DNA from: Clostridia bacterium
GTDB lineage: Bacteria; Bacillota; Clostridia; Lachnospirales; Anaerotignaceae
Assembly: GCA_009929735.1 (NCBI GenBank)
Contig: RZZU01000012.1
Span: forward strand, 6,894 to 70,893
Direction: 5' to 3'
Length of the DNA stretch: 64,000 nucleotides
Shown here: in pieces, positions 7,710 to 45,428 of the stretch
How positions within the stretch are numbered: position 1 is the first letter of the stretch
Layout: every line of letters starts with the position of its first letter
Made by a program: the position numbers and the translations under genes
Notes under the pieces: generated by a model
Databases searched by the model: none
What the model saw: only the letters and a program-made list of their open reading frames with translations
Told to the model about the DNA's origin: nothing

Positions 7710-7722
7710 AAATAATCCTCCT

Positions 7723-9170: not shown

Positions 9171-9199
9171 TTCATAGCTAACATTTAGGTGTCGGTCAA
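9171..9199 (-). promoter_or_regulatory. Candidate sigma-A promoter for the CBASS operon (TTGACC-17-TATGAA)
   Basis: Read on the minus strand: -35 at 9199-9194, 17-nt spacer, -10 at 9176-9171, about 55 nt upstream of the cap4 ATG. The -10 lacks the final T, so it is weak or uncertain. Confidence 0.3.
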
Positions 9200-9200
9200 C

Positions 9201-22230: not shown

Positions 22231-22242
22231 CTTGTTTGCCTC

Positions 22243-22548
22243 CTAAAAAGGTAGCCATTCCCTTATTTCTTTAAGCCCTTTGTATGTTTTCATTGATGCC
22301 GAATTGTTGTGTAAATACTCCATTCCTTTGACTGTCAGTTTTGTTCCTTCTAAAAATCCAATCAAAATTTGATGACTTTTTCCACCTTTTGTAAAGTTTG
22401 CACCTTTTATAAGTCCTTCATCTTGACACGCTTCAACGATGTCCCAATATTCCCAATTTTCAATACCATATTCACTTGCGTTCGGAATATTGCCGTCGTT
22501 TACTTCTCTCATAAAACTTAGCATTACTTTTAATTTATCAATAGCCAT
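22243..22548 (-). CDS. YjcQ-like small winged-helix protein inserted between pglX and pglZ
   Basis: Likely start MAIDKLKVML (ATG 22548) with AGGAGG upstream. The product (...GIENWEYWDIVEACQDEGLIKGANFTKGG...LTVKGMEYLHNNSASMKTYKGLKEIREWLPF) matches my memory of the SPbeta YjcQ family. Confidence 0.6.
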   Translation of the reverse strand: MAIDKLKVMLSFMREVNDGNIPNASEYGIENWEYWDIVEACQDEGLIKGANFTKGGKSHQILIGFLEGTKLTVKGMEYLHNNSASMKTYKGLKEIREWLPF

Positions 22549-22558
22549 TATTCTCCTC

Positions 22559-25500: not shown

Positions 25501-26221
25501 ATACTTGCTCTTTTGGCTCGGTATTGTAATACTGATACAACCAACCGATAATCTCAACTGCTTCTTTAAAATCATCTTCTGCAATGTCATTTACAAGGTG
25601 GCTAATAATGCCGTCTTTATCCGTAAAAGAGATATTCAGCAAAAACTCGGTATAGTCGTTTGTTTTTTCAAAAAGCTCTGGTAACACTTCATTTAGCTTA
25701 TTGCACTGCTTAATAAACAGCATACGAAACAGCTCGTCCAGCTTGTTTTCGTCTTTGAGCTGCACAATTCTATCTGTTTCAAAGGAGCTAAACTCCATAT
25801 CGGTTTCAAAAGGAGTGGTTACCATATCAGGCTCTGCCTTGCCACTCATTTCACTGGAAAGCACACGCACACGAGAGGGTAAATAGTCATTGACCTCCAT
25901 AAAACGAATAGCCACAAGGCGGTTAAACCAAGTGTAGGCAACTTCTTCTACCACAAACTGAAATGCAGTTTTGTAGTCGGAGGTGTTTTCTGTTTCTTCA
26001 ATTTTCTTAACTAAAGCCTTTCTTTGCTTGACTTCGACCCCGGTAAGTTCAGTTGGCTTGCCTGTGCCAACGTCATAGAACTCGATATTATCGGTAGAAA
26101 TTGGAAGTGGCGATAATTTACCCCCTTCACTAATACCGATAAGCCCTGCTTTATATGTTATTTCACTGATGAGCTTTCGTCTTGCCCATACAGCAAAGTT
26201 TTTAATGGCTGTTTTATTCAT
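22559..26221 (-). CDS. pglX: BREX PglX N6-adenine DNA methyltransferase
   Basis: About 1220 aa from MNKTAIKNFAVWARRKLI (ATG 26221, GGAGGG SD). SAM motif DPCMGSGHIL and catalytic VVITNPPYMG. Confidence 0.9.
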   Translation of the reverse strand: MNKTAIKNFAVWARRKLISEITYKAGLIGISEGGKLSPLPISTDNIEFYDVGTGKPTELTGVEVKQRKALVKKIEETENTSDYKTAFQFVVEEVAYTWFNRLVAIRFMEVNDYLPSRVRVLSSEMSGKAEPDMVTTPFETDMEFSSFETDRIVQLKDENKLDELFRMLFIKQCNKLNEVLPELFEKTNDYTEFLLNISFTDKDGIISHLVNDIAEDDFKEAVEIIGWLYQYYNTEPKEQVFALLKKNVKITKEHIPAATQLFTPDWIVRYMTENSLGRLWLEGHPNDDLKADWKYYLDEAEQEEAVQTEFEKIRAEYKKITPEDIKLIDPCMGSGHILVYAFDVLMQIYESQGYTQRDAAQSIIENNLYGIDIDKRAYQLAYFALMMKARQYDRRFLTRGISLNLIYTSSNIDYEFANKYNSKQMLEYLQETENSSLVGSLIECSPIDYKEILQLIDSKRDVDFGIEFALTWEEKRKEIKDKIKLQYIVNQKYDVVITNPPYMGASGMNAKLSDYVKKNYPDSKSDLFAVFIEKCLQMAKQNAYIAMITQHAFMFLSSYEKLRGKLLNTDFINMAHLGARAFEEIGGEVVQTTSFVMRKSNIKDYKAIFTRLVNYNSQQEKENAFLAKNDLHIAHQENFSKIPGSPIAYWVKQAIFDIFSNNKSLGEFAEPRQGMATGDNNRFLKMWFEISTGNVNKKWFPYSKGGSYRKWYGNGEYYVNWENEGFDIKAFSGSVIRNPSYYFKQGLAWSALTSGNISFRYLPTGYLFDSKGPVCYPLNKENMFFLLGLVNSNSIMCFLQILAPTLDFNQGPIGKIPLPKFQYRETVDKLVEQNISLSKTDWDSFETSWDFVKHPLLKYGVSLYGGLGDVENGVYLSSINFGVDNSNGNLKVYEKNAPQNYTIQSAFKIWQDICEKQFKELKANEEELNRVFIEIYGLKDDLTPNVDDKDVTVHYICDSKDTAPESMKNSNYLLTKQEVVKSFVSYAVGCMFGRYSLDVDGLVYAGGDWDDIKYSTFIPDADNCIPITDEEYFEDDIVGLFVAFVKKVYGAETLEENLDFIAKALGNKGNTSREIIRNYFIKDFYKDHVKIYQKRPIYWLYNSGKQDGFKALVYMHRYTADTTGLVRVDYLHRMQKTYISEIERMQDMVDNSKNDREVAQAEKRKEKIVKQLKETKEYDEKIAHLALSRITIDLDDGVKVNYEKVQTGQDGKKLDILGKI

Positions 26222-26234
26222 GGTGTGCCCTCCT

Positions 26235-27077
26235 TCATTGGATGTTATTAAAAAACACTTCCACAGCATTTACAAGCTCATTCCAGTCAAAACTATCTAC
26301 AGCTTGAACAGATGCACTAACGATAGCTTTTGTAGCTAATTGCTCCACAAAAGTTTTAACTCCTATTAATGCCTTTTTAAACCTACTTTTTTTTGGCACA
26401 TCTGATTGAATTTGCTCACTTAAAACTTCTAAGTCATCTTGAACTTCTTCTCTTAAATCATCATCTATATCTATAGATTTAACAACACTTATTGCTTTTG
26501 ATAGCAATTCAAATAATTTTTCATTATCACCTATGGTAACATTATTTATAGATGTGATTACACTACCAACATTGGTAGTTCCATAATTAGTCCCATTAAA
26601 GTTTTGGGTTATACTTGGTATTGTCACTTTTTCTTCCTCCAAGAGCATCATTTCTTTTGTAATGCTATCGTTAATAAAATCGATTAATGCTTTGAAAGCA
26701 TCATCTACAAAATTTTGAATAATGTCATCATACTTTTTAGCAGAATGAAAGTATGAAAGTGCAGCACCAAGCACATTACTACCGTTTCCTACTATTGTGC
26801 TCATATAATCATACATAGCTTTTATATGACACGCTTCATCCACTGGAACAACTATCTGATTCCATCCACCATTCTCATTTATAAAGCAAGACGTGTACTC
26901 GTAATCAATATTAGATATTTTCTTTTGAACTATATTTGAAATAAAAGGGTTTGAGTCGATGAAATTCTTAAATCTTTGTATGTTTGCACTTGCAGTTTCA
27001 TTTGTTGACCTTAGTAAATTACTGGATATTCTTCTAAAGTCTAAACTCAACTCCCTTAACTCTCTTTTTGTAATCAT
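26235..27077 (-). CDS. Hypothetical 280-aa protein embedded in BREX (function unknown)
   Basis: Start MITKRELREL at ATG 27077 forms an ATGA overlap with the stop of the upstream Zn-ribbon gene. Acidic helical C-terminus and no recognisable catalytic motif. Visibly more AT-rich than brxC and pglX. Confidence 0.6.
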   Translation of the reverse strand: MITKRELRELSLDFRRISSNLLRSTNETASANIQRFKNFIDSNPFISNIVQKKISNIDYEYTSCFINENGGWNQIVVPVDEACHIKAMYDYMSTIVGNGSNVLGAALSYFHSAKKYDDIIQNFVDDAFKALIDFINDSITKEMMLLEEEKVTIPSITQNFNGTNYGTTNVGSVITSINNVTIGDNEKLFELLSKAISVVKSIDIDDDLREEVQDDLEVLSEQIQSDVPKKSRFKKALIGVKTFVEQLATKAIVSASVQAVDSFDWNELVNAVEVFFNNIQ

Positions 27078-27535
27078 AGATCCACCCCACAATACGAACA
27101 AAATATTTTTGATATTCCCGCACAATATAGAACTTTCATATGATGGTTACAACATCCACATTTAAATTCTGTCTCAACGGTATCTTTATCTTTTAGTTCC
27201 TTTACGTACACTTTTTCAAGAGGCTTAAAAGACATTTTAATAATACTTCCATGCTTGTTTAAAGAGCGTTGCATAGAACCAAAGGTTTTATTTAATTCTT
27301 CCATCATATAATTCATAGCTATTGCTTGTGCTTTCTCTATTACTTCATCTGTATAAAAGGAACGAGTACTGTTAGACAATCCGCAATATGGGCAATACAA
27401 CTCATGAAATGGTTCATCAGCACTTTGAAATTCATCAGCACTAAGTTTAAATTCTGAGGAACAATATGGACAAGAAAAAGTTACATATCCATCACTATCC
27501 CCTTGAATAGTAAATTTAAATTGAACATCACTCAT
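27074..27535 (-). CDS. Hypothetical 153-aa protein with four CxxC pairs (two zinc ribbons) embedded in BREX
   Basis: CPYC...CPYC in the N-terminal third and CGCC...CSYC at the C-terminus. Starts 11 nt after the brxC stop. Confidence 0.6.
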   Translation of the reverse strand: MSDVQFKFTIQGDSDGYVTFSCPYCSSEFKLSADEFQSADEPFHELYCPYCGLSNSTRSFYTDEVIEKAQAIAMNYMMEELNKTFGSMQRSLNKHGSIIKMSFKPLEKVYVKELKDKDTVETEFKCGCCNHHMKVLYCAGISKIFCSYCGVDL

Positions 27536-27546
27536 TTAAAGCCCTC

Positions 27547-30500
27547 CTAAAACTCAATATTTAAAATCGTATCATCTTTTACGCTCTGTTTTAGTTTCTG
27601 CTTTAGAACTTCAACATAGCGTTCTACATCTTCCTCTGTTTCAATTCTCCATGTTGACTCCGAGTTAATAGATTTTATGCTAATGGTTTTTTGAATTTTT
27701 GCTTTCGGTGCCGGTGGAGGGGTAATTACTTCTTCGCCACTTGTAGTAATCTTTGGCGGTGTAACAGGCTGTTTTGCAGCGATTATTTTAGCTTCTTCCA
27801 CAGCAATTTCATTGAGCAAACGTACTTTTAAGGCATCAGCCTCTACCTTGATGTTTTGCAGGGTAGCTACACTATTGCAGGTTTCAGCTTTTTTCTTTAT
27901 CTCTGCAAAACGCTCTGCAATCTTATTCGATAATATACTACGACATTCTTTCCCCTCAAGTTCCTGCATCACACGCAATCTCGCTTCTTCAATGGCGGTT
28001 GTAATAGGTTCTTCCATTTGGGTAAGCATGTCATTGTATAAGTTTGTATATCGCTCAAGAAGCTCAGGGATTTTTCTAATTTCGCTATATGGTTTTGCCT
28101 TTGCCATTATTGCTTTAATTGCAGTAACAACATCTTCAATTTCGCTATTCACAATAAAAGTTTTGCTGTCATCATAAATCTTCATCAGCTTTAGGCTATG
28201 ATTCCAAATTTCGATTTGATCGCCATGAAAAAAGGCTTTAATAGGCTCATAATCTTCAGCAAAATCCAGTAAAACATCCTGCTTATCAGTAACAATATTG
28301 AAAAATTCTGCGGAATATTTAATTGCAAGTAAATCCATCATAAAAGCTTTACCATTCTTTACCACCTGCTTACCAGGATAGCTTTGTTCGTTCTTATAAT
28401 GTATTTCTAATTTTTCTAGATCATTTTTTAGTCTATCTGCATACTGCATAAAGCTCTTTAAGATTGCATCATCTTCTTCGCTCATTGGAGTGATGTTAAA
28501 GAGTTCTTTCATCACATCACGAACAGCTTTTTTCTGCTTATCATTGGCTTTTTCTCGCTTTTCTGTAAGTAGTTTTTCTAAAAACTCTTTTCTGCTTAGG
28601 TAGCGATACACTTCATCTTCACTCTTATTCAGAAGTGTAACAGCATCATTGTTTACAAAGAAAGCCAAATCACCCTCTTTAAACAGCTTTGCAACAAGCC
28701 ACTCTACATCATCCTCAATAAATCCATATGGTGCCTTTGTAAAGCGTTCCATAATGGATTTCAGCGATGTTTTAGCGTGTCTTTGGGTATTCATGCTAAC
28801 AAAATCAAGCACGTCATTTAAGGCAAGTCTGTTAGGAGTTTGTACTTGTCCATCAAGAGATAACTGTGCATTGTTAGTCCCTTTAAGCACTGCTCGTATA
28901 TGTGATTCATTCATTGCTGTATCAATATAAGACAACTTATGAAATACTGTGCTGATTAGCTTACCAAGTGCATCATTGATACGAGAAGAAATATCTTTCG
29001 CAGCAATTTGTACCTTATCCCCATTTACATAGATAGCAGCTTGTTTCATTGCTTCTTCAAGGAAAATCCTTGCGTTAGCATTCCTTTCACGCATTTCCAC
29101 TCGTTTGGCTTCTTTAATTTGCTCATACTTGCTATTCATATTATTAGAATTAGGCCGTAAATACTTTTCTATTTTCAGTGCAGAACGAATTTCGTTAATA
29201 AAAGCCTTATCATCGGGCAATGCTACGATAACACACTTACTCTGCCCACTCATCATTCGAAGAGTCGTTTCATTCATCTGTGCATCTGTAAAGTTTGGTG
29301 TTAATACTTTAAGAAATATGCCATAGTTTTGATTTCCCTTGTAAGGTCTATCATCTACAATTTGATTGAACCCAAAAGTATATCTACCATTGAAAGCTGA
29401 GTATCTGTATTTCTTGTCATCATACAGTCCATCAAAAATAAGTTCTGCTGTTTTGCCTGTCAACTCATAGGCTTCCACACTTAGAGCTTCAATCTCACGA
29501 TTGATTTCCTGTTCTTCATCAGTAAGAAACACATATAGTTCACCATTTTTTTGGACAAGTGTTTGACGACATAAACGCATCAGGGCTTGTTCCACTTTGT
29601 CTTTTAGGGCAATACGGTCATCATCAATATCAGAAACCATAAGGCTAGTGATATTTTCAAGGTTCGGAGTAATTTCTTTGACATATTTAATCATAAATAA
29701 TGTCTTTAGAACATTGACCTCAAAACAATCTTCTAGCTTATTAGGGTTTAAATACTCGTTGTCATAAGCTCTAATGATAACGCCTTTATGACTATGGTCT
29801 AAAAACTGCTCCAGTGCATCATAAAACATATTGAATGGTACAAGGGCACCCTCGTTCTTTGCCATAACTCTCATAGCGGACTCTTTGAACAAGGCAAGCA
29901 TTGATCGTTCACCTTCAGCCAAATGCTTACCACTGGCACCGTGGGTTCTAATGGAGGTTAATACATCTCCAAGCAAATTGAATTGATATGGAATAAATGG
30001 GTAAACATCAGAAAAATTTTCTCTATCCGAATATAACTTCTTTTCAATGCCATCGTTAAAAATAATCAGGTTTTTTATAATGGTATCTTTGTCATCATAA
30101 AGAAGTGCTAATGTCTGATTACCTGTTTCTGTTTTTTCAAGAATTCTCTTATGAATCACTTCATCCACGTTGGCAGATGAGAGGGACAGCCTTGTATCAA
30201 AACGACCTTGAATTTTAGAGAAGTCATTTCCTCTGGTTTTTGTGATGCTATCAATGTCTTGCTGGCTTGTTACAATAATCCAAGCTTTGCCTTTGCACTC
30301 AGTGCCTAAATCCTCAGCAACTGTTTGCAAGTTTAACATAAGGTCAGTTTTTTCGCCTATGTACTGCCCAATTTCATCTACCAAAAATATTACATGATGA
30401 TTATTGCCTTTTTTCTTTATATAATCGCTTACCATTTTTGCAAAGGTACTAATATCCATATTATAGGGATTAGTGAAACTCTCACAAGTATTTTTCGCTG

Positions 30501-31170
30501 CTTCCATACTCATATATTCAATTTGAACCAATGCTTTGCAAACATAGTCTTGAATAAATCTAAATTGATGGCGTGAGTCTATCCATTCTTTTCCACGAAT
30601 GGATAAAAAAGCACTTTTGAACTCCTCATATTTACCTTCTTCGGTAAGAGTTCTTTCTAAATCAGCAAGGTGGGGGTTTGCTCCGTAAAATCCCAAATGC
30701 TGATTAAATACTTTTAAGAAAACAGACAGGATAGCTTCTTTATTGTTCTGGGTATCTGCCATTCCACTCTTAGAGTCAATATTAAATAGGATAACATCCG
30801 CAGATGTATTTGCTGCAAGCTTCATATCACCAAGAACCACTTCATCCTTGATTTTTTTGTCTTCAACAAAGTAATCAATTGCTGTTTTTCCATCAACCAC
30901 ACGATTTTCAAGAAGGTAGGATAAAATCTTTAAGAAATGAGACTTACCACTTCCAAAGAAGCCAGAAATCCATACTCCCATTTTATCGGTATTTCCTACG
31001 ATTCCTTTTTTATAGCTCGCAAAAAAGTCTGCAAAATGCTTCTGCAGTTCCCTTGTTACAACATATTCTTCAAGCTCTTGCTTTACATTCTCATCATCAC
31101 CCTGGCCAACCTTAATAACGCCTTTAATATCTCTATCAATTGGCTTAGAAAACATATTTTTAATAATCAT
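27547..31170 (-). CDS. brxC: BREX BrxC (large P-loop ATPase)
   Basis: 1207 aa. N-terminus MIIKNMFSKPIDRDIKGVIKVGQ and Walker A GFFGSGKSHFLK. Follows brxB. Confidence 0.9.
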   Translation of the reverse strand: MIIKNMFSKPIDRDIKGVIKVGQGDDENVKQELEEYVVTRELQKHFADFFASYKKGIVGNTDKMGVWISGFFGSGKSHFLKILSYLLENRVVDGKTAIDYFVEDKKIKDEVVLGDMKLAANTSADVILFNIDSKSGMADTQNNKEAILSVFLKVFNQHLGFYGANPHLADLERTLTEEGKYEEFKSAFLSIRGKEWIDSRHQFRFIQDYVCKALVQIEYMSMEAAKNTCESFTNPYNMDISTFAKMVSDYIKKKGNNHHVIFLVDEIGQYIGEKTDLMLNLQTVAEDLGTECKGKAWIIVTSQQDIDSITKTRGNDFSKIQGRFDTRLSLSSANVDEVIHKRILEKTETGNQTLALLYDDKDTIIKNLIIFNDGIEKKLYSDRENFSDVYPFIPYQFNLLGDVLTSIRTHGASGKHLAEGERSMLALFKESAMRVMAKNEGALVPFNMFYDALEQFLDHSHKGVIIRAYDNEYLNPNKLEDCFEVNVLKTLFMIKYVKEITPNLENITSLMVSDIDDDRIALKDKVEQALMRLCRQTLVQKNGELYVFLTDEEQEINREIEALSVEAYELTGKTAELIFDGLYDDKKYRYSAFNGRYTFGFNQIVDDRPYKGNQNYGIFLKVLTPNFTDAQMNETTLRMMSGQSKCVIVALPDDKAFINEIRSALKIEKYLRPNSNNMNSKYEQIKEAKRVEMRERNANARIFLEEAMKQAAIYVNGDKVQIAAKDISSRINDALGKLISTVFHKLSYIDTAMNESHIRAVLKGTNNAQLSLDGQVQTPNRLALNDVLDFVSMNTQRHAKTSLKSIMERFTKAPYGFIEDDVEWLVAKLFKEGDLAFFVNNDAVTLLNKSEDEVYRYLSRKEFLEKLLTEKREKANDKQKKAVRDVMKELFNITPMSEEDDAILKSFMQYADRLKNDLEKLEIHYKNEQSYPGKQVVKNGKAFMMDLLAIKYSAEFFNIVTDKQDVLLDFAEDYEPIKAFFHGDQIEIWNHSLKLMKIYDDSKTFIVNSEIEDVVTAIKAIMAKAKPYSEIRKIPELLERYTNLYNDMLTQMEEPITTAIEEARLRVMQELEGKECRSILSNKIAERFAEIKKKAETCNSVATLQNIKVEADALKVRLLNEIAVEEAKIIAAKQPVTPPKITTSGEEVITPPPAPKAKIQKTISIKSINSESTWRIETEEDVERYVEVLKQKLKQSVKDDTILNIEF

Positions 31171-35243: not shown

Positions 35244-38200
35244 TTATCTTTCTTCATAAGACTTTTCAGGGCTTTCAGTTGTGCAATCATCGGCTCGAAT
35301 TTCTTCTTTGAAGTCCTTGAGTGCCTTTAGAACAGATGGCTTTTTCTCCTGTTCGGTGTCGGTATGATCGGCTTCTTCTTCCTCCTTTTCTGCATTGTCA
35401 AGCTCGATATTAAGCTGTGTAAGCCGTGTCTGTTTTTCCTTATATTCCTGCTCTTTGGGAAAAGAGGTATCCACCTCAGACTGTGCTGCTGCCTGCTCAG
35501 CATTTAGGTTTTCTAAACGGTTTTTGAGGTTGTCAATGGTTTTAGGCATATTTTCAAGAGCATTGTTAATACGCACAATATTACCTGTAATGTTGTTCTC
35601 CAGTTCTGCTATATGGGTGATATTGTTTTTCATTGCAATCTTAAATGTGCCATTGTCAATATACAGGGTCATTGAAAATCCTCTAAACTCACCAAGTTTC
35701 ACTCTATCCTCGGGGTTCTGGATAGCCTTACAAGCCTGTAAAACAGCTTCCCCGGCAGCTTTTCTTTCAGTATATAGTTTGCCTTTAACGGTCATAGAAA
35801 AGCTATCTTCAGCTATGGGGTGCGTCTGTACCACCTTGTAATCCTTGGTTAGTCCGTCTATACGTTCCACAGTCTTTTTAATCTCCTGTGGGTAGTATTT
35901 AATGAGCCTATCCTCCATATCGTATTTCTGACTTTGGTGGTTAGAACGCATTAGCTTGAGCTTTGCAACAGCAATATCGAGATCCATCTTTTCCTTAATT
36001 CTTGGATCACCGGTGGCGAGTGCTTTAACCTCAGCATAAGAAAGAGCCGTAGCATCAATATCGTCTGCACTGCGGGCAGGCGATTTACTGGTGAATATCT
36101 GACCGATAAATTTCTGTTTATTTTCGATCAGGCTCCAATTGTACGCATCGAAGGTGTTCTCGGTAACATACTTGAAGATTTTAACCTCTTTATTCTCATT
36201 ACCTTGCCTTATAATTCTTCCCTCACGCTGCTCCAAATCCGCCGGACGCCACGGGCAGTCTGTGTGATGAAGTGCCACTAATTTCCGCTGTACATTGGTG
36301 CCCGCACCCATTTTTTGTGTTGAACCAATCAGCACACGAACATCACCACTTCGCACCTTTGCGAAAAGCTCAGCCTTTTGTTGCTCGGTGTTGGCATCGT
36401 GAATAAACTTGATTTCTTCCGGTGGGACACCTTTTTCCATCAGCTTGTTTTTAATATCATCATACACATTAAAAGTGCCGTCATAATGGGGAGTGGAGAG
36501 GTCGCAAAAGATTAGCTGTGCTCCTCTGGTATCGGTACTTTGCTCCCAAATGTCGAATACATTGTTTACACAGGTATTGATTTTACTGTTTTCATCATCG
36601 GAGAGCAGATCATTTTGTAGCCTTTGGTCAAGTGCCAGCTTTCTACCATCAGATGTAATACGCAGCATATTATCCACGTTAGGCTCTACCTCTTTTTTAC
36701 GAACGCTATTTGCTCTGTCTGCAAGGTCTTTTACCATTTCTCTTTGAAACTCGGAGGGCTTGGTTACAACGGTTGTGTGATATGCTACGGGGACAGGTAG
36801 GTTTAGCATATCGGCAGTTTGAATATCTGCTGCACCTTTCCAAATGTTAATCAGTTCTGGAAGATTAAAAAATTTTGCAAAGCGTGTCTTAGCACGAAAA
36901 CCCGTGCCCTCCGGAGCAAGTTCAATAGCCGTAACTTTTTCACCAAAGTTGGCTGCCCAGCTATCAAAATGGGTTAAATCAAGCCTTTGGAGGGTTCCAT
37001 ATTGTAAATATCTCATCATTGTGTAGAGTTCCACCATTGAGTTACTCACAGGGGTTCCAGTGGCAAAAACAACACCTTTACCGCCTGTCAACTCGTCCAT
37101 ATAACGGCACTTAGTAAACATATCGGTAGATTTTTGTGCTTCACTTTGTCCGATACCGGCAACATTACGCATTTTTGTTTGAAGGAACAAATTCTTAAAA
37201 AGGTGTCCCTCATCTACATAGAGCTTATCTACCCCCAATTCTTCAAAGGTTACTACGCTGTCCTTGCGTTCTTGCGAGGACAATTTTTCTAGCCTTGTTT
37301 CAAGACTTTTCTTTGTTTTTTCAAGCTGTTTTATGGTATAACGTTCACCATTTTGGCTTTTTGCATCCTGTATTGCAAAGAGAATTTCATCAATTTGGGT
37401 CTTTAGGATTTCCTCCTGCCTTGCTACCGATAGAGGAATTTTCTCGAATTGAGAATGTCCGATAACCACAATATCAAAATCACCTGTGGCAATGCGAGAG
37501 CAGAATTTCTTGCGATTCGCAGGCTCAAAGTCCTTCTTTGTGGCAACAAGGACATTTGCACCAGGATATAAGGTAAGAATATCTCCACCCATCTGTTCGG
37601 TTAGGTGATTGGGCACAACAAATAGAGACTTCTGTTGCAAACCAAGTCTTTTGCCCTCCATGGCACTTGCCACCATTGTAAAACTTTTTCCAGCACCAAC
37701 CACATGGGCAAGTAAGGTATTACCACCGTAAAGAGTACGAGCTACGGCATTACTTTGATGTGCATTTAGCTTAATGATTGGGTTCATACCATCAAATTTA
37801 ATATGCTGACCATCAAACTCACGAGGACGGATAGAGTTGTAAATTTCATTGTATTTCTTTGCTAAAACCTCTCGACGCTGTGGGTCTTTCCATATCCATT
37901 CCTTAAAGGCTTCACCGATGGCTTCCTGCTTTTGCTGTGCTAGGGTGGTTTCTTTACCATTTAGCACTCGTTTCTCCTTGCCGTCATCATCAATGACGGT
38001 ATCAAAAACACGCACATCACGAAGATTTAAGCTATCCTCTATAATCTGATAGGCATTTTTGCGTTTTGTGCCATAGGTAGCAATGGCACGAGGGTTTGCC
38101 CTATCCTCCATTTTCCCCTTAACATTCCACTCGCTTGTATGCTTTGAATACATAACATCAATTCTGCTACTGTGCATATAACGTGGAGTGCCTAAAGCTT

Positions 38201-41200
38201 CAAACATAAATTGCTTATAGTATTCTGGATCTACCCAAGTCGCACCAATACGAACATCAATCTCAGCTGCGGATAAATCTTTTGGCTGTATTTTTGTAAG
38301 CATATCTAAGTTGACTTGATACTGCGGATTATCTGAAACAGATAGCTTTGCAATAGCAAGCTTTTCACGGACATTGCCAGATAGGTATTCATCTGCTGTT
38401 TGCCAGCCAATAAGGTTATTGTCTGCATCACTTAAAGGGTCTTTGAATATAATCCCTTTTAAGTCCTCAATGATAACAGGTATGTTATCCTCCCCACCTA
38501 AAAGCTGTGCCATAAAACCAATATCCACACGGGCTTTTTCAGAAATAGATACTGCCAGCGCTTCCGTAGGAGTATCAACAGAGGTAACCTTAACCGATTG
38601 TTTTATGGTGCGTTTGGTGAACATATCAGCTTTGGCTTTTAGATTGCCATTCTCGTCTAATTGCTCCAAAGAGCAAAGGAGAGGATAAGAAACATCATCT
38701 GCAAAGGCTTGCTTATTAGCTTTGCTGTTAATTAGTCCAAATTTCTTATTAAAATCGTCATAAAGTATGTTTAATGTTAGCTGTGCCTTTTGCAAATCAT
38801 CATCAGAACACTCATTCAACTGCATTTCAATGATTTCTCTGGTTTTATCACGAATGCCAAGTAAGGCATTTACTCGCTTTTGTGCTGTATCAGATAGAGA
38901 AACAGGCCTCATTCTGCTGTTTTCTCTAAAATATAGCTTGTCATCAATAAGAGCATAGCTGAAATTTCGCACATCGGGAGTGGCTTCAATAGTGGCAGCT
39001 TCTTTTTCTCCATCTATAGCGGTAACAGGGTCTTTTAGCAGTGCTTTATCGGGCGGTAGAATGTGGAGTATTGCTTGTTCAAGCTGTTGTGCAAGGGGGA
39101 TTTCATGGTTTGGAACACAGGTGGCTTCCATTCCAAAAGGACCCGATACCATTTTCATTCTGCCCATAATCATTTGAGGGTTTTCCTCAAAGTATTTATT
39201 CACTGCAATACCGTCCTCAGTTTCGCCAAGCTCTACCCAAGAAGGTAAACGCTCCGGTGCGTGGTCACGCTTTTGAAGGAAAATAATATCACTGGTGACT
39301 TCCGTTCCCGCGTTGGCTTTAAAGGCTGTGTTAGGCAATCTGATAGCACCCAGCAGGTCGGCTCTCCCAGCAAGGTGTTTTCTCACTTCACTGCTTGCTT
39401 TATCAAGAGTGCCTTTAGAAGTAATAAAGGCTACCACACCGCCACTTCTAACCTTATCAAGGGATTTTCCAAAAAAGTAATCATGTATCAAGAAACCCAG
39501 CTTATCATATTTTTTGTCATTGAGCTTGTAGTTACCAAAAGGCACATTACCCACCGCCATATCAAAGAAGTCGTTGGAAAAATCGGTTTTCTCAAAGCCT
39601 TTAATTTGAATATTTGCCGTCTGATAAAGCTGTATTGCTATTCTTCCAGTTAGACTATCCAATTCCACACCGTAGAGTTTTGAGGTTTGCATACTCTGTG
39701 GCAGCATCCCGAAAAAGTTACCACTGCCCATTGCAGGCTCTAAAATGTTGCCATTTGGAATATCCATAATTTCCAGCGCCTTATACATCGCTCGAATAAC
39801 AGTGGGTGAAGTATAGTGGGCATTTAGGGTACTGGCTCTTGCCATTTCGTATTCATCGGGTGTCAGTATGGCTTTTAGCGCAGCATACTCACTTCGCCAA
39901 TTATCCTTGTTCTCATCAAACGTATCGGTAAGACCGCCCCAACCGACATACTGTGATAAGATTTCCTGCTCTTCAGCATTAGCTCGTCTATTTTCCGTTT
40001 CAAGTTGTTTTAGGATTTGAATAGCAAGAATGTTGTGGGCATATTTTTCTTTGGCTGTGCCGACACCCAAATCATCATTGGTAATTGCGTAATTGATTTT
40101 AGGTGAAGTATCCGTAATTTCATTTTCTACTTGTTTAGTGGGAGGGGTAAAAGGTGTATCCTCTAAACTGCCACCGTCAAAATCAAAATTGATTATTCTT
40201 TGCGGCTCCGGCTGCTTTTCATCAGTAACAATAGAGATATTTTGCTCTTGCAGCTGTGATTGCTTTTGCTCCACAAAATAGCGGATATAGTCCACAGTTT
40301 CACTGCGAAAGATAGGAAAGCCAGTGCCATTTTGGAAGGTTGTATCACGCAAGGAAACCTTGTCGAAGTCATAATTTACGCTGTCAATGACAAAATCTCT
40401 ACCACCGATTGTAAGCTCCATACCAATAGGAATATAATCCTTTGCATAATGCTCAGTAATGGTGTGGTACTCGCCGTTTTCTTGTCCAATGAAACAGAAG
40501 TTAATTCCTCTATCTTTAAGGTTTTTTGTTGCCACTTGCCAATCCGCCACATAACCGCCAGTTACTTTGGTATTACCGATAAGGGGTATGTCTCGCTCAA
40601 TTACCTTGCGACCAAGAATAGGTGCAGCTATCTCGGCATCATCACCATAAAACAAAAGCAGACTACCCGATTGTATACCTACAATCTGATGTGGGTGGTC
40701 TGCTTTTTGGTTTAAATATTCGGTTATTGTTTTTTCGTCGCTAAGGAGCTGTTCCATTCGCTCACGGGAGAGTTTTTCGCCAATTTCTTCTACAATGGCT
40801 GTTTCGACTCCCTCATGAAAATCAGCAAAATTTTCATCAAAAGCTGTAACTGCTTGTAGTTCCTCACCTGCTTGTGTTTCTGTTTGCTCTAAAAGGTAGT
40901 TGTAGTCAATCTCCTTTGCATTGCCCCTGTCAGTAAGTGCGGAAATACCCTCTACCAAATCATCTTCACAAATCAGGTTAATGGCTTGCTCCATAGAAAT
41001 AGATGGATCATCATAAACGCCACCATCAATAAGGTGGAGGTTTTCATCAAAGATAGAATAATCGTAGCCTTCGTCAACCTCTCGGATGGAGAAGTAACGG
41101 TTGCCTACTTGATATGCAAGTTTAGCAGGCTCGGTCATTCTGCTTTCTTTCTTGATAATTTCTTCTACCTTGGCAACTATATTTTCATTTGTGGGATCCT

Positions 41201-44102
41201 CAAGGCTTTCTGTAGCAAAGTCGATAAGTTCTTCGGATACCATAAGCCCCCTATCTTCTAAGATGGAGGATACGGAACCGCCTACCAAATCGAGAGTGAG
41301 CTGTCCACTGTCTGTTTCTTTGTGGGTGGATTTTCGCTTGCGTTCCAGTTTTTTGGCGATATTGGTAATATCGTCGATACTGTCCTCGTCCAGTTCCTCA
41401 TGGTCTTTTTCCACCCGCTTTATGGCGTATTCTTGGCTTTTGAAAATAGAGTAATCACCGGTTTGAAAATCCTTTAAATTCGCAAAAGCCTTCTGCATAT
41501 AGTCAAACCCACGCGCATCAGAGAGGGTATGTCCTAACACATATTCCATCTGTCCAATAAGATTACCTACAAACTCGCTATCCTCAAGTTGTTCCGCAAC
41601 CTCTTTTACAACCTTATCCATATAGCTGTAATCACTGCTTGGAGCAGTAAAAGGCTTTTCTATATCCGGTGGAGCATAACTGTAAAAGTAAACAATGCCT
41701 CTTGCAATTTTTTCTTTCTCATAAGTGGGAATGTAGGCAAGCTCCGCACTGCTAAGATAGCGATTTTCAGCAATCAAACGTTCAATTCGCTTTGTTACTT
41801 GTCCCCAGTTTTCCATAACGGTTGCGTAGGGCTTAAAGTCAATTTCCCTTGCGTATATAGTACCCTTTGCGGAATGGTTCAAGCTAATACCCCAGTGTGC
41901 ACTGCCACTCCAGCCATAATAATTTTTTAGAAAGTCGGATTTCTCTTTCTCTGTATGCCCTTGTTTGAAAAAGGCATAGGTATCAATGTGAGAAGTATTA
42001 AAATGCCTTGTGCGGTTATCAGTTGCATAGATAGCATTTAGTTCATCTTGGGTAATAAAAGACGGGGTAATTGGAGCAAATTCCTCTTTGGATGGGAACA
42101 TAACAGGCTCATTTTGCAAATCCTTTGCCATACCAATAATCTCTGTTGGTGTATGAAAGGTCATTCGCATAGTTGCATCTTTATCTGCAATAAAATCTTG
42201 CTCCATTTGCTTTAATCCAAGCATTAAAGTAGACAACTTTTCTTTATCCGTCAAATGAGTATAAATTTCCTCTGTGCAATCAGGATATACAAACCTCGTT
42301 ACAATAGGATCAAGTTTTTCATTGGTGTAATCCTCGGCTTTATCCCGATACATAAAGGAAAAATATTCAGCCACATATTTTTGATAAACTTCTTTTGACT
42401 GTTCCAGTTTATCGGCAGTGAGATATTCGCCCTTTTCCAGTAGATTTCTAATCCTTTCGGCAGTCTGCACCCAAGAAAGATTTATTTTGTTCTGTGCGTG
42501 ATAGGTCTGATTTCCCCTTGCAATGGTAATGCCGTCTTCATCATACCAAAAAGAGTATTTTACTCCATCAATCTCAAAGCCCTTGCCACCTCTACCATAA
42601 TGATTTTTTAGATAATCTGCATTTTCAAAAAGGTCAGTATTAAATGCCATATATCCAGCGATAAGGGAAGTGCTGTTTTTTTCTTCGCCACCCGTTGCTA
42701 AAATCTTATCCACCACTTCAAAGGAGATAGATTCAGCATCAAATATGCTGTTTTGGGCAAAAGAAAAAGCAGCAAGCGTGACGCTTGACCCATTTAGGAC
42801 TTCGTCGCTTACTGCTTTACTTTCTGCAATAGACTCAATTTGTTCATGGATAGTAGGAAATATAGATACTTGATTGCCACTTACCTTGCGTAAATCAAGT
42901 CCTTCATCACCACTTCCTCGGCTTGTAGCTTGATGTTTGTTGCCATCTGCACCCATAGAAGTTGATCTTTGGCTTTCAGCGCCTCGGTTACTCCCTGTGC
43001 TTTCATCATTTCTTCTGTCATCTGATCTACTTGGCTGTGAGCTGTCCTGTCCACCTCCACCAAGTGTGGCCACAGACTCCCATCTTGCAGCATTCGGCCG
43101 TAGGTTCCCCTGCGGTTCTCCTTGAGATGCGTTTCTCTCATCATTCCATACTTGCCCACTGTGTCGGGTAGATTGTCCAAATCCTCCATCTGTAAATCCG
43201 GTATCAGATAGTCCCCGTTCTGAATATAATTCACCTTTTCTACCACTGTCATTTTCCTCCTTTGTATTTTTACTTTCACGCTTTAGAGTGCTAAATTCTA
43301 TATTGTCAGTATAATCTACTTTCCGCTTATTATCAATAGATTTTGCAAGTAAATTTCGCTCACTTTCTCTTATCACTGCACCGATGGTGAGGAGCATTTC
43401 ATTTGATACCAAGTTAATGGCATTGCCCAAATGAGAGAAGACGGCAGGGCTATTGAAGTCGGTAATTCCTCTAAAATCGTCCTCATCAAGATATTCTCTT
43501 GCATCAATGCCACACCGTGTAAGCACCATATACTGAACGCTTGTAGTAACAGCATTTCTAAAGGCAACATCCATATTCAGTTCATCAATTCCCTCTAAAA
43601 AGCTATCCTCAAGATCGTAGTTTAAATCGTGCAAAAACTCTCGGTAATGCTCACCCACGGCTCGCTCAGTAAGCTCCATAAGGCTACTTGCAAAATCATC
43701 TTTTTTAATCTCGCCATAAAACCCTGTGAGCTGCTTTAGCACATCCTCGTGATAGTTTGGTAGCATTTCCCACAGATACGGCGTTTTTGCTCCTCGTACC
43801 TCGTTGGTATCGGAAACCTCGAAAACATATTCAATACGAGGTTTTCCACCTTGATTTTGACGGATAAGGGCAATGCCTTTGCTACCTCGTTTCACCCAGC
43901 GGTTCATCTTCTTGTTCCAAATTTCGATATTGGCACAAGCGGTGGCATCGGGACGTTGTGCGTAAATCATAATCTGGTCATCAAAACTGTACTTATAGAG
44001 TTTGCTTGCGGTAGTAAGATAGTCCTGCCAGTTACTGATATTTTTCAAGACATCTTCTTTGGTATCGGTAAATAGCTTTGAAACTTCGTTTATTCTGCTC
44101 AT
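35244..44102 (-). CDS. Giant polyvalent conjugative-element protein: ArdC-like N-terminal domain, disordered linker, uncharacterised middle domains, N6-adenine DNA methyltransferase module, SNF2-type helicase module
   Basis: One continuous ORF. The likely start is ATG 44102 with AAGGAGG upstream; the listed GTG 44147 lies inside a terminator hairpin. ArdC-like YSFDDQIMIYAQRPDATACANIEIWNKKMNRWVKRGSKGIALI. MTase motifs LEPAMGSGNFFG (about 39.72 kb) and GNVPFG (about 39.55 kb). Helicase Walker A VGAGKSFT (about 37.69 kb), DEGH box LYVDEGHLFKN (about 37.21 kb) and motif VI QREGRIIRQGN. Confidence 0.85.
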   Translation of the reverse strand: MSRINEVSKLFTDTKEDVLKNISNWQDYLTTASKLYKYSFDDQIMIYAQRPDATACANIEIWNKKMNRWVKRGSKGIALIRQNQGGKPRIEYVFEVSDTNEVRGAKTPYLWEMLPNYHEDVLKQLTGFYGEIKKDDFASSLMELTERAVGEHYREFLHDLNYDLEDSFLEGIDELNMDVAFRNAVTTSVQYMVLTRCGIDAREYLDEDDFRGITDFNSPAVFSHLGNAINLVSNEMLLTIGAVIRESERNLLAKSIDNKRKVDYTDNIEFSTLKRESKNTKEENDSGRKGELYSERGLSDTGFTDGGFGQSTRHSGQVWNDERNASQGEPQGNLRPNAARWESVATLGGGGQDSSQPSRSDDRRNDESTGSNRGAESQRSTSMGADGNKHQATSRGSGDEGLDLRKVSGNQVSIFPTIHEQIESIAESKAVSDEVLNGSSVTLAAFSFAQNSIFDAESISFEVVDKILATGGEEKNSTSLIAGYMAFNTDLFENADYLKNHYGRGGKGFEIDGVKYSFWYDEDGITIARGNQTYHAQNKINLSWVQTAERIRNLLEKGEYLTADKLEQSKEVYQKYVAEYFSFMYRDKAEDYTNEKLDPIVTRFVYPDCTEEIYTHLTDKEKLSTLMLGLKQMEQDFIADKDATMRMTFHTPTEIIGMAKDLQNEPVMFPSKEEFAPITPSFITQDELNAIYATDNRTRHFNTSHIDTYAFFKQGHTEKEKSDFLKNYYGWSGSAHWGISLNHSAKGTIYAREIDFKPYATVMENWGQVTKRIERLIAENRYLSSAELAYIPTYEKEKIARGIVYFYSYAPPDIEKPFTAPSSDYSYMDKVVKEVAEQLEDSEFVGNLIGQMEYVLGHTLSDARGFDYMQKAFANLKDFQTGDYSIFKSQEYAIKRVEKDHEELDEDSIDDITNIAKKLERKRKSTHKETDSGQLTLDLVGGSVSSILEDRGLMVSEELIDFATESLEDPTNENIVAKVEEIIKKESRMTEPAKLAYQVGNRYFSIREVDEGYDYSIFDENLHLIDGGVYDDPSISMEQAINLICEDDLVEGISALTDRGNAKEIDYNYLLEQTETQAGEELQAVTAFDENFADFHEGVETAIVEEIGEKLSRERMEQLLSDEKTITEYLNQKADHPHQIVGIQSGSLLLFYGDDAEIAAPILGRKVIERDIPLIGNTKVTGGYVADWQVATKNLKDRGINFCFIGQENGEYHTITEHYAKDYIPIGMELTIGGRDFVIDSVNYDFDKVSLRDTTFQNGTGFPIFRSETVDYIRYFVEQKQSQLQEQNISIVTDEKQPEPQRIINFDFDGGSLEDTPFTPPTKQVENEITDTSPKINYAITNDDLGVGTAKEKYAHNILAIQILKQLETENRRANAEEQEILSQYVGWGGLTDTFDENKDNWRSEYAALKAILTPDEYEMARASTLNAHYTSPTVIRAMYKALEIMDIPNGNILEPAMGSGNFFGMLPQSMQTSKLYGVELDSLTGRIAIQLYQTANIQIKGFEKTDFSNDFFDMAVGNVPFGNYKLNDKKYDKLGFLIHDYFFGKSLDKVRSGGVVAFITSKGTLDKASSEVRKHLAGRADLLGAIRLPNTAFKANAGTEVTSDIIFLQKRDHAPERLPSWVELGETEDGIAVNKYFEENPQMIMGRMKMVSGPFGMEATCVPNHEIPLAQQLEQAILHILPPDKALLKDPVTAIDGEKEAATIEATPDVRNFSYALIDDKLYFRENSRMRPVSLSDTAQKRVNALLGIRDKTREIIEMQLNECSDDDLQKAQLTLNILYDDFNKKFGLINSKANKQAFADDVSYPLLCSLEQLDENGNLKAKADMFTKRTIKQSVKVTSVDTPTEALAVSISEKARVDIGFMAQLLGGEDNIPVIIEDLKGIIFKDPLSDADNNLIGWQTADEYLSGNVREKLAIAKLSVSDNPQYQVNLDMLTKIQPKDLSAAEIDVRIGATWVDPEYYKQFMFEALGTPRYMHSSRIDVMYSKHTSEWNVKGKMEDRANPRAIATYGTKRKNAYQIIEDSLNLRDVRVFDTVIDDDGKEKRVLNGKETTLAQQKQEAIGEAFKEWIWKDPQRREVLAKKYNEIYNSIRPREFDGQHIKFDGMNPIIKLNAHQSNAVARTLYGGNTLLAHVVGAGKSFTMVASAMEGKRLGLQQKSLFVVPNHLTEQMGGDILTLYPGANVLVATKKDFEPANRKKFCSRIATGDFDIVVIGHSQFEKIPLSVARQEEILKTQIDEILFAIQDAKSQNGERYTIKQLEKTKKSLETRLEKLSSQERKDSVVTFEELGVDKLYVDEGHLFKNLFLQTKMRNVAGIGQSEAQKSTDMFTKCRYMDELTGGKGVVFATGTPVSNSMVELYTMMRYLQYGTLQRLDLTHFDSWAANFGEKVTAIELAPEGTGFRAKTRFAKFFNLPELINIWKGAADIQTADMLNLPVPVAYHTTVVTKPSEFQREMVKDLADRANSVRKKEVEPNVDNMLRITSDGRKLALDQRLQNDLLSDDENSKINTCVNNVFDIWEQSTDTRGAQLIFCDLSTPHYDGTFNVYDDIKNKLMEKGVPPEEIKFIHDANTEQQKAELFAKVRSGDVRVLIGSTQKMGAGTNVQRKLVALHHTDCPWRPADLEQREGRIIRQGNENKEVKIFKYVTENTFDAYNWSLIENKQKFIGQIFTSKSPARSADDIDATALSYAEVKALATGDPRIKEKMDLDIAVAKLKLMRSNHQSQKYDMEDRLIKYYPQEIKKTVERIDGLTKDYKVVQTHPIAEDSFSMTVKGKLYTERKAAGEAVLQACKAIQNPEDRVKLGEFRGFSMTLYIDNGTFKIAMKNNITHIAELENNITGNIVRINNALENMPKTIDNLKNRLENLNAEQAAAQSEVDTSFPKEQEYKEKQTRLTQLNIELDNAEKEEEEADHTDTEQEKKPSVLKALKDFKEEIRADDCTTESPEKSYEER
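42881..43252 (-). CDS. tnpV: TnpV-like ORF (123 aa) fully embedded, out of frame, in the linker region of the polyvalent gene
   Basis: AAGGAGG (43262-43256), ATG 43252, TAA 42883-42881. The product MTVVEKVNYIQNGDYLIPDL...GKYGMMRETHLKENRRGTYGRML...AQGVTEALKAKDQLLWVQMATNIKLQAEEVVMKDLIYAR has globular composition and resembles the clostridial TnpV family from memory. Expression is unproven. Confidence 0.5.
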   Translation of the reverse strand: MTVVEKVNYIQNGDYLIPDLQMEDLDNLPDTVGKYGMMRETHLKENRRGTYGRMLQDGSLWPHLVEVDRTAHSQVDQMTEEMMKAQGVTEALKAKDQLLWVQMATNIKLQAEEVVMKDLIYAR

Positions 44103-44136
44103 TCGCTCCTCCTTAAATTTGATTTTGGACATAAAA

Positions 44137-44174
44137 AATCCCGACACAAAGAGGTTTGCCCTTGTATCGGGATT
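44137..44174 (-). terminator. Hairpin terminator, copy 1 of a duplicated hairpin
   Basis: AATCCCGACACAAAG (44137-44151) / CTTGTATCGGGATT (44161-44174), with T-runs on both sides. Follows the 71-aa gene and precedes the polyvalent gene. Confidence 0.6.
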
Positions 44175-44186
44175 TATTTTTTGTTA

Positions 44187-44402
44187 TTAAATTGCTTTTA
44201 TCTTGTTGACAGCATATTTTATAAATTCTTCGGGTGTGGGGACTTCTCCCCTGCGGGGAACTTGCTCCTGATAGGCTTTTATAATACCATCGTCATTCGA
44301 CGTAAAAGCGTATTCAAGTGCTGCCTGCATTTCGGTTTTGACTTCTTTCATGCTTACACCATTTTGCTTTGCTATTTTTCTATAAATACTTCGATTGCTC
44401 AA
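44187..44402 (-). CDS. Small conserved-looking helical protein (71 aa), function unknown
   Basis: TTG start at 44402 preceded by AAGGGGGA (6-nt spacer). Product MSNRSIYRKIAKQNGVSMKEVKTEMQAALEYAF... looks like a small DNA-binding helical protein. Family not assigned. Confidence 0.55.
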   Translation of the reverse strand: MSNRSIYRKIAKQNGVSMKEVKTEMQAALEYAFTSNDDGIIKAYQEQVPRRGEVPTPEEFIKYAVNKIKAI

Positions 44403-44766: not shown

Positions 44767-45066
44767 TTATTTTGCGACAATTTCTTGTTTTGGAATAAAC
44801 TCAAGTTTCAACTGCATATCCATTCCTTCAGCAAGCCTTTGTAAAAGGGAAAGAGTGGGATTTGCATTGCCATTTTCAAGTTTGCTGATGTCTGCTTGGT
44901 TGATGCCGGTTTTTTGTGCAAGCTCCTTTTGTGTAAGGTGACTATTTTTTCTAGCATCTATCATTGCTTGAATGATATTAAACTCTGGCTCAAGAACATT
45001 CCATTCTTTTTGAAATTCAGGATCTTTCAATTCTTGTTCTAAAAGTCTATCAAAATCATCACGCAT
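44767..45066 (-). CDS. XRE-family HTH antitoxin (HigA-like)
   Basis: HLTQKELAQKTGINQADISKLENGNANPTLSLLQRLAEGM. Starts 2 nt after the toxin stop. Confidence 0.75.
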   Translation of the reverse strand: MRDDFDRLLEQELKDPEFQKEWNVLEPEFNIIQAMIDARKNSHLTQKELAQKTGINQADISKLENGNANPTLSLLQRLAEGMDMQLKLEFIPKQEIVAK

Positions 45067-45068
45067 AA

Positions 45069-45428
45069 TTACAACTCCTTTCCACTTTTTTCTAAATAAT
45101 CCTTGCGATACTTTTCAGCAAGGTCAATTTCTTTAGGTGGTGTTTTCGCCGTTTTTTTGATAAAACCGTTTGTTAGTACTATTTTTCTCCCAATTACGAA
45201 AAAATATAACACCCTTGAAATATCACTACCTTGTTTTGCTCTAAGTTCAAATATGCCATTACCTAAAGGCTTTGTATATGGCTCTCGTAAATCATTTCCG
45301 TTCTTCCTTAAAATTTCAATGCACCGCAACATCTTGGCTCTCATTTTTGTATCAAGAGAAAGGACAAAATCTTTAACCGGAACATCTCCATTTTGATTTT
45401 TATAAAATTCGATTTCAAAATCTGTCAT
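45069..45428 (-). CDS. RelE/ParE-superfamily toxin (HigB / phage Gp49-like)
   Basis: 119 aa. FYKNQNGDVPVKDFVLSL...LGNGIFELRAKQGSDISRVLYFFVIGRKIVLTNGFIKKTAKTPPKEI matches the Gp49-like/HigB pattern. Toxin-first gene order as in higBA. Confidence 0.75.
   Translation of the reverse strand: MTDFEIEFYKNQNGDVPVKDFVLSLDTKMRAKMLRCIEILRKNGNDLREPYTKPLGNGIFELRAKQGSDISRVLYFFVIGRKIVLTNGFIKKTAKTPPKEIDLAEKYRKDYLEKSGKEL

Follow-up and report, generated by a model that had tools for sequence, protein, structure and literature searches.

How can the same 372 nt be kept open on one strand for two proteins at once, one of them a small protein of a named family and the other a giant that has to be read through it without a stop? 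The question is raised by a locus from a member of the Clostridia (contig RZZU01000012.1, positions 6,894 to 70,893; this whole stretch of 64,000 nucleotides is called the window), in which the gene for a giant polyvalent protein of a conjugative element holds, one nucleotide out of frame, a complete tnpV gene. It is highly probable that this is a maintained case of dual coding, in which a functional, internally initiated tnpV is overprinted by the open reading frame (ORF) of the polyvalent protein, where it is read as a disordered tether.

The nested gene and the linker that runs through it

The original prediction, made from the letters alone, had described within the polyvalent frame a 123-codon ORF with an AAGGAGG Shine-Dalgarno (SD) sequence, an ATG and a TAA of its own, and its coordinates all hold (Table 1); an ORF scan returns the same gene in a GTG-extended version of 132 codons (42881..43279, 132 aa). 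Its offset to the polyvalent ORF is +1 nt and its ATG lies 895 nt past the GTG at 44147. The 123-residue product (MTVVEKVNYIQNGDYLIPDL...LIYAR), which contains the tryptic peptides VNYIQNGDYLIPDLQMEDLDNLPDTVGK and DQLLWVQMATNIK, had been taken for a TnpV protein, and the Pfam hidden Markov model confirms this assignment: PF14198 is matched with E = 3.9e-36 and 123.8 bits (cut-off 27) over the full length of the profile (residues 8–120 against positions 1–111 of 111). The product also matches phrog_24764 (E = 4.1e-33); scans against NCBIfam and PADLOC matched no family. The invariant or nearly invariant columns among TnpV proteins are P18, Y35, G36, L64, W100, A111, E112 and E113, and an AlphaFold2 model built on a 33-sequence alignment predicts a confidently folded 14-kDa protein (mean per-residue confidence, pLDDT, of 88) with an N-terminal beta-hairpin at residues 9–18 followed by five helices.

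The polyvalent frame reads the same segment as a sequence running from NDSGRKGELYSERGLSDTG to ...GDEGLDLRKV, and the low complexity that had been ascribed to it is borne out by its composition, with G at 17%, S at 14.5% and R at 10.5% against 5.7%, 5.7% and 4.5% elsewhere in the polyvalent protein. An AlphaFold2 model on a 43-sequence alignment predicts no secondary structure for residues 282–431 (pLDDT 25–34), with folded modules resuming from residue 433.

The polyvalent gene itself probably begins not at the GTG at 44147 but at the ATG at 44102, which has AAGGAGGAG just upstream and agrees with the N-termini of homologues (MSRINEV...), giving a protein of about 2952 aa. A terminator-like structure, a 17-bp hairpin with a T-run at 44136–44175 on the minus strand, overlaps the GTG and would precede the gene. 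The label of ArdC-like that had been given to the N-terminal domain fares differently by sequence and by structure. The window's own domain has no Pfam match, the ArdcN profile (PF08401, for the ArdC N-terminal domain that binds single-stranded DNA) matches two of nine homologues (best E = 0.0031, under the curated cut-off), and comparison with the PDB by sequence, both as a single sequence and as a profile, found nothing; on the other hand, the top Foldseek match of the domain is the ArdC of R388 (6sna_F, E = 3.9e-3, probability 1.0, target-normalised TM-score 0.42, the next match having E = 0.55), which weakly supports a distant relationship. Among the downstream modules, LPD16 is matched by Pfam with E = 6.5e-22. 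A 65-codon ORF beginning with ATG also lies in an alternative frame within the coding region of the N-terminal domain (43373–43570, minus strand) and is probably there by chance.

Table 1. Coordinates of the nested pair and the features around it in the window
Feature	Coordinates	Strand	Description and basis
Polyvalent ORF	35244..44147	minus	2967 codons from GTG 44147; continuous
N-terminal folded domain	43320..44102	minus	pLDDT about 90 for residues 1–276; distantly ArdC-N-like
Candidate sigma-70-like promoter match, TTGATA-17-TATACT	43308..43336	minus	about 55 nt upstream of the tnpV ATG; 10/12 consensus positions
Predicted disordered tether, aa 282–431, enclosing the overlap	42855..43304	minus	AlphaFold2
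tnpV Shine-Dalgarno sequence, AAGGAGG	43256..43262	minus	followed by AAA, then ATG (3-nt gap); sequence
Polyvalent reading of the overlap	42882..43253	minus	codons 299–422; G/S/R/D/E/N/Q-rich stop-free linker
Nested tnpV coding sequence	42881..43252	minus	ATG 43252–43250, TAA 42883–42881; 123 aa; translation and PF14198
Rest of polyvalent gene	35244..42854	minus	LPD16, Eco57I-like N6-methylase, ResIII/SNF2-type helicase with Helicase_C; Pfam

Two open frames across related elements

The most prosaic account would split the locus into three, namely an ardC-like gene, tnpV and a gene for a methylase-helicase, which sequencing indels or a chance lack of stops have made to look like one continuous ORF. 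Some observations can be read in its favour. The window's TnpV is present in NCBI protein sets, and the exact polyvalent protein, for which two ATG starts were tried, is not in the protein collection. An NCBI protein of 393 aa that is 96% identical (P0003, a relative of 43000–44102) shows another frame relationship, a deletion of about 76 nt joining the N-terminal domain in frame to TnpV from residue ~29. In two further loci, L010 (Chakrabartyella piscis, 5983–12353) and L035 (5979–12347), the polyvalent-frame ORF does not start until tnpV does, or until a few codons into it, which makes them possible variants that are split or have no N-terminal domain. P0003 also differs in its C-terminus, and may represent either decay of the element or an error of assembly.

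Against this account stands the conservation of the arrangement. A search with the first 549 residues of the polyvalent protein gave 1271 scored matches, and the family of the N-terminal domain comprises 4677 clusters at 50% identity (E ≤ 1e-3); the linker remains recognisably similar even in polyvalent homologues of 32–40% identity. In the DNA of four metagenomic relatives (proteins 39–63% identical) an intact TnpV ORF is found in the +1 frame at the same place in all four. A scan with the TnpV alignment over one genome per species gave at least 553 tnpV-encoding stretches, of which the best 80 were used; their hosts include Anaerotignum, Lacrimispora, many Lachnospiraceae and Oscillospiraceae, Faecalibacterium and Peptococcaceae, among others, the closest relative being Anaerotignum neopropionicum DSM 3847 (96% TnpV identity). 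In a first pass over these and the metagenomic loci, the polyvalent frame (+2 relative to tnpV) had no stop in 82 of 84, its ORF starting about 300 codons upstream of tnpV and extending more than 2000 codons downstream, and the third same-strand frame carried 6–18 stops across tnpV. Re-scoring with gene boundaries left 86 of 90 tnpV genes nested, the window's included (35 non-redundant at <90% TnpV identity). A scan of IMG/VR contigs seeded with stand-alone TnpVs added 17 nested and 31 stand-alone genes, and a search with representatives one more nested locus (L148), for a total of 104 nested loci with both frames open, 43 of them non-redundant at the same threshold. These reach down to 42% TnpV identity to the window and span background third-position GC contents (GC3) of 0.23–0.77. 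Detection of the linker by BLASTP misses GC-rich versions (it reports none in 24 of 120 homologues, including the nested P0008), and its counts were not taken as a census.

The original prediction had allowed that relatives might carry stops in the alternative frame, or that resequencing might split the region; instead, both frames are open in all 104 loci, and the frames stand in one relationship in independent assemblies, so that indel errors at the junctions are ruled out. Gene callers, moreover, predicted continuous proteins of 2000–3300 aa through the linker. Four of the nested loci (L009, L013, L019 and L060) come from metagenome-assembled genomes labelled Odoribacter, Brevinema, Hallerella and Prevotella, all outside the Bacillota, which might reflect either binning contamination or transfer across phyla.

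The part of the three-gene account that appeals to chance can be addressed through codon usage, given that the polyvalent frame acquires a stop wherever T closes one tnpV codon and the next begins with AA, AG or GA. When the synonymous codons of each TnpV were redrawn at the frequencies found in the non-overlapping part of its polyvalent gene, 8.6 stops were expected in the window, where none is seen, and none of 5000 draws was free of stops, so that the earlier judgement that such an open frame is unlikely by chance is borne out. The 35 non-redundant nested genes each have 3.3–12 stops expected, with per-locus probabilities of zero stops from <2e-4 to 0.022 that are not independent of one another, the loci being phylogenetically related. 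The window has 39 at-risk junctions and the non-redundant nested genes have 27–61 each, none of them following a T-ending codon. A stricter permutation of codons within the gene gives P = 0.036 for the window. The stand-alone tnpV genes provide a control: 14 non-redundant ones carry 1–17 stops in the corresponding frame, near the permutation means of 2.7–18, and this agreement validates the null model. In light of this, the account of three genes joined by error or accident is almost certainly wrong.

The same purging of codons leaves a mark on composition. The segment had been noted as looking richer in GC than its flanks, and its GC content is indeed about 0.50 at 42925–43224 against about 0.31–0.45 on either side. 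At third positions tnpV has T at 0.13 and G at 0.40, and the rest of the polyvalent gene T at 0.36 and G at 0.18; the GC bump can thus be attributed to the removal of T-ending tnpV codons that keeps the polyvalent frame open.

Which of the two frames is constrained bears on a further alternative, namely that only the polyvalent frame has a function, with the TnpV-like ORF either a relic that is not translated or a side effect of selection for the linker. In a codon alignment of nested representatives, nucleotide entropy at tnpV codon positions 1, 2 and 3 is 0.87, 0.69 and 1.18; this pattern, highest at the third position and lowest at the second, is the signature of the tnpV frame, and not that predicted for constraint on the polyvalent frame, where the first position should be the most variable and the third the least. 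Among 332 close pairs (1–25% nucleotide divergence), 4832, 2480 and 8364 substitutions fall at the three tnpV positions; normalised by mutational opportunity, omega comes to about 0.22 in the tnpV frame and about 1.65 in the polyvalent one, values that are naive counts over non-independent pairs and are confounded by the overlap, the direction of the difference being considered unambiguous. Identity to the window runs in the same sense, at 0.42–0.79 for TnpV, 0.33–0.80 for the folded N-terminal domain and 0.26–0.57 for the linker. Even what look like linker motifs turn out to be motifs of TnpV read out of frame (ERGLSDT for NGDYLIPD, GQVW for GKYGM and RGAESQRS..MG for GVTEALKAKDQLLWV), from which it appears that the polyvalent frame is selected only to stay open. 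The omega of the linker, its low identity and its predicted disorder thus give no support to selection at the amino-acid level on the polyvalent frame within the overlap, and by these sequence comparisons tnpV is the frame under purifying selection at the protein level.

The idea of a relic or by-product draws on a diverged copy in Streptococcus suis, on plasmid pID32563-SS1 (NZ_CP135064.1, 5905–6300), where a nested TnpV-like ORF of 31.6% identity over residues 28–121 has neither the N-terminal GDYLIP motif nor a clear SD sequence or ATG, and where the only RefSeq entry covering the nested gene is a "DEAD/DEAH box helicase family protein". With this plasmid the nesting reaches the Bacilli, where it may be decaying. 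Besides the codon-position variability and the omega values, however, the conservation of the tnpV start codon, SD sequence and stop position, the existence of homologous stand-alone tnpV genes in which the other frame is closed, and the contrast between a confidently predicted TnpV fold and a predicted disordered linker all speak against the idea, and it is regarded as improbable.

Initiation, origin and the weight of the evidence

If tnpV is expressed, its start would have to be reached from within the polyvalent message or from a transcript of its own. An SD-like core stands 8–10 nt before the ATG in 48 of the 52 nested loci scored, with AAGGAG in 37 and the exact GAAAGGAG in 31; the remaining four seem to owe their lack of a core to a wrongly called start or, for S. 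suis, to degeneration of the copy. The window's SD sequence contributes to K-E-E when translated in the polyvalent frame, in a place where the conserved stretch is K-R-E-S-x-E-R-S. A stop just 1–9 codons before the ATG closes the tnpV frame in relatives (e.g., L003, "...KKGA*IMAELTY"), which argues for internal initiation over a frameshift fusion. The promoter-like match in Table 1 is a weak candidate for an internal promoter upstream of tnpV.

The fusion in question would be a programmed +1 frameshift that makes TnpV a C-terminal extension of the N-terminal domain (a product of about 420 aa), with the SD-like element as its stimulator. Internal SD-like elements can indeed stimulate frameshifting, as in prfB and dnaX, so that the element seen here could do the same, and the deletion variant P0003 shows that a fusion of the N-terminal domain with TnpV is at least encodable. 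Yet the ATG stands at canonical spacing after the SD sequence in nearly all loci, stand-alone TnpV proteins start at the same position as the nested ones, and the upstream closure of the tnpV frame would leave no conserved slippery window (slippery motifs were not searched for systematically). A frameshift product is, on this evidence, very improbable.

As to how the pair arose, tnpV is also found as a gene on its own. The NCBI annotation pipeline PGAP names a "TnpV protein" on plasmids of Campylobacter, Streptococcus, Enterococcus, Salmonella and others, and the stand-alone copies in L076 (4142–6354) and L088 (714–2941) come right behind the gene for a large serine recombinase, which they overlap or abut, in the manner of tnpX-tnpV in Tn4451. 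The recombinase-tnpV pair of L076 is apparently inserted into a gene for a coupling-protein-like product (truncated ORF 3529–4194). A polyvalent gene without the segment exists as well: in P0256/L147 (Logan contig from SRR31670575, gene 1501–4239, 912 aa), a homologue of the N-terminal domain follows the same topoisomerase gene and passes directly into LPD28, LPD18, DUF3849 and LPD16, with neither a linker nor any potential to encode TnpV. The overlap therefore constitutes an indel among homologous polyvalent genes, a possibility that the original prediction had suggested checking for 42.88–43.26 kb. Among the other variants is a deletion chimera, P0244. Given that TnpV is predicted to be folded and is constrained, and that the polyvalent reading is predicted to be disordered and is unconstrained, tnpV would by the usual criteria be the older frame, and its capture followed by read-through is the course of events that this favours. 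A more specific proposal, an ancient "fusion by overprinting", would have two flanking genes of the element joined into a single giant protein fit for delivery, through an intervening gene that came to be read as a tether while still being initiated internally; this is put forward only tentatively and is rather unlikely to be correct in that form.

Several points weigh against the dual-coding reading and have to be set beside its support, in addition to the relatedness of loci and of sequence pairs already stated. The within-gene permutation is weak in GC-rich lineages, where the probability of zero stops rises to 0.47, because codon usage there already avoids T at third positions. A neighbour-joining tree of 57 TnpVs over 120 residues interleaves nested and stand-alone forms in poorly resolved clades, and the stand-alone genes could derive from nested copies that escaped into small transposons. 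Promoter-like matches in the region are not above shuffled expectation. Both the internal initiation of TnpV and the read-through of the linker are deduced from sequence, and ribosomes elongating in the polyvalent frame should hinder initiation at an internal SD sequence, so that the output of TnpV may be low or may require a separate transcript. Finally, Foldseek comparison of the TnpV model found no informative neighbour in the PDB (best E = 3.8, to the helical bundles of mTOR FRB) and a best match of E = 0.39 in BFVD, and with PADLOC also giving no match there is no analogue from which a function could be transferred.

Taken with these reservations, the dual-coding reading may be laid out as follows. 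A small mobile-element gene, tnpV, which would have existed beforehand, lies wholly inside the giant gene of a clostridial conjugative element, in its +1 frame. Ribosomes translating the polyvalent protein would read the 372 nt as a G/S/R/D-rich tether of about 125 residues joining the N-terminal domain to the rest, and other ribosomes would start internally at the conserved GAAAGGAG SD sequence and ATG to make free TnpV, whether on the polyvalent mRNA or on a transcript that begins internally. Selection would act on the amino acids of TnpV, and essentially only on the absence of stops in the polyvalent frame; stops would be avoided by purging T-ending tnpV codons before AA, AG and GA codons, whereby the local GC content is raised. 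The three options that had been offered at the outset, genuine dual coding, internal translation of tnpV within the polyvalent mRNA and a captured cassette read through in another frame, are compatible with one another, and the comparative evidence fits all of them together.

As to what TnpV does, the working guess is a small protein that assists the transfer or recombination of the element, since stand-alone copies sit directly downstream of large serine recombinases. A role as an excisionase similar to lambda Xis is an old postulate that appears in a passage of PMC3158075. It finds no support in the structure, for among the 20 PDB matches listed for the TnpV model by Foldseek there is no excisionase, and such a role is not a defining feature of the Pfam family.

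The element, comparable systems and implications

The window as a whole has the make-up of a mobile element, encoding a coupling protein, a VirB4-like ATPase, a relaxase, NikA/MobC, topoisomerase III and a CD1107-like protein; genes for a topoisomerase, a CD1107-like protein, a DUF4316 protein and a relaxase neighbour the polyvalent gene. A blastn search of 42300–44200 against the PLSDB plasmids gave no match. All of the following genes are on the minus strand. Defence cargo is represented by a bacteriophage-exclusion (BREX)-like cluster at 17556–31170 (BrxC 27547–31170, a PglX-type methylase 22559–26269, PglZ 19717–22230 and BrxL 17556–19739) and by a module similar to the cyclic-oligonucleotide-based anti-phage signalling system (CBASS) at 4779–9114 (a SAVED effector 7723–9114, a SMODS cyclase 6600–7709 and a ThiF/E1-like protein of the Cap2 type 4779–6599), which is adjoined by a UvrD-like helicase with topoisomerase-type zinc ribbons (9255–11984). 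Immediately upstream of the polyvalent gene lie a Gp49/HigB-like toxin (45069–45428) and an antitoxin with a helix-turn-helix domain (44767–45066). The corresponding place in L148 is taken by a ParE/Phd pair, so that toxin-antitoxin modules may recur in front of polyvalent genes.

As a protein, the nested product belongs to the family of the TnpV of Tn4451 and Tn4453 (PF14198), mobilisable transposons of clostridia, with a length of about 115–125 aa, the GDYLIP, GKYG, W and AEE motifs and carriage on mobile elements. The difference is one of setting: in the Tn4451-type elements tnpV is a separate gene after the large serine recombinase, with an alternative frame full of stops, whereas here it is nested in a gene of about 2950 codons. 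The host gene, for its part, conforms to the polyvalent proteins of conjugative elements and phages described by Iyer et al. 2017 (PMC5512222), giant polypeptides that unite unrelated effector and enzyme domains, LPD domains included; it combines an LPD domain, an N6-methylase and an SNF2/ResIII helicase with its distantly ArdC-N-like domain. A second gene inside an inter-domain tether is absent from that description, the text of which contains no occurrence of the terms TnpV, frameshift, overlapping or linker.

Small viruses are the textbook setting for long, conserved overlaps that lie out of frame on one strand; their bacterial counterparts are considered very rare, difficult to prove and systematically suppressed by annotation. 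The established parallels for a gene nested out of frame on the same strand are comS inside srfAB of Bacillus subtilis, Rz1 inside Rz of phage lambda and the E, B and K genes of phiX174. The tnpV locus shares with them a complete gene with its own SD sequence and start, in the +1 frame and on the same strand, whose translation has been demonstrated in those cases and is deduced here. It departs from them in the balance between the two frames, for there the nested gene is short (46 aa in ComS), restricted to a lineage or viral, and usually seen as the younger frame, whereas here the nested 123-codon gene is predicted to be folded, belongs to a widespread family and is the more constrained, and it is the host ORF that supplies the "new", disordered reading. 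The nested pair has been kept across many Clostridia, with more distant nested copies in Cohnella and S. suis.

A parallel may also be struck with hidden genes that annotation has missed, such as ardD in tniA of Tn5053 (PMC3533173) and the antisense overlaps of Escherichia coli (PMC7103648, PMC9927249). Those are antisense and of narrow distribution, unlike the present pair, which is on one strand and has deep comparative support. Full-text searching of the literature, with a coverage that is incomplete and leaves a prior description possible, found no paper describing the nesting of tnpV, and the pair is thus apparently undescribed. In its length of 372 nt, in the depth and breadth of its conservation among mobile elements of cells, in having the constrained frame as the nested one and in belonging to a named Pfam family, it is unusual among nested genes.

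The consequences begin with annotation. Each record examined lacks one of the two genes in its listed annotation; for example, the PLSDB gene table (which omits pseudogenes) gives for Monoglobus and Cohnella only a "TnpV protein", though it is traversed by an ORF of more than 1300 codons. Many genomes of Clostridia and catalogues of integrative and conjugative elements (ICEs) may therefore lack TnpV or the polyvalent protein, or show it in pieces. The comparative support is unusually strong for a case of this kind, with more than 100 loci, a wide range of GC content and the stand-alone tnpV genes as a matched natural control, and the pair can be seen as a natural experiment in how the gene for a folded protein tolerates a second frame, the disordered reading being a "cheap" one for the host ORF to carry. 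The purge of NNT codons before AAN, AGN and GAN codons leaves a measurable compositional mark, the GC bump, that is usable for finding other cases.

The pairing also ties the function of TnpV physically to the anti-restriction and establishment protein of ICEs that are widespread in the gut microbiome and carry defence and resistance cargo, and thereby brings that function within experimental reach. On the proposal of fusion by overprinting, the pair would rank, at 372 nt, with the longest and most broadly conserved nested pairs on one strand in cellular prokaryotes, and would span hundreds to thousands of 50%-identity clusters of the N-terminal domain. The arrangement might also work as a built-in translational switch: the traffic of polyvalent ribosomes would occlude the SD sequence of tnpV, so that TnpV would be produced chiefly under low polyvalent translation or by way of an internal transcript, and its dosage during transfer and establishment would be inverse to polyvalent synthesis.

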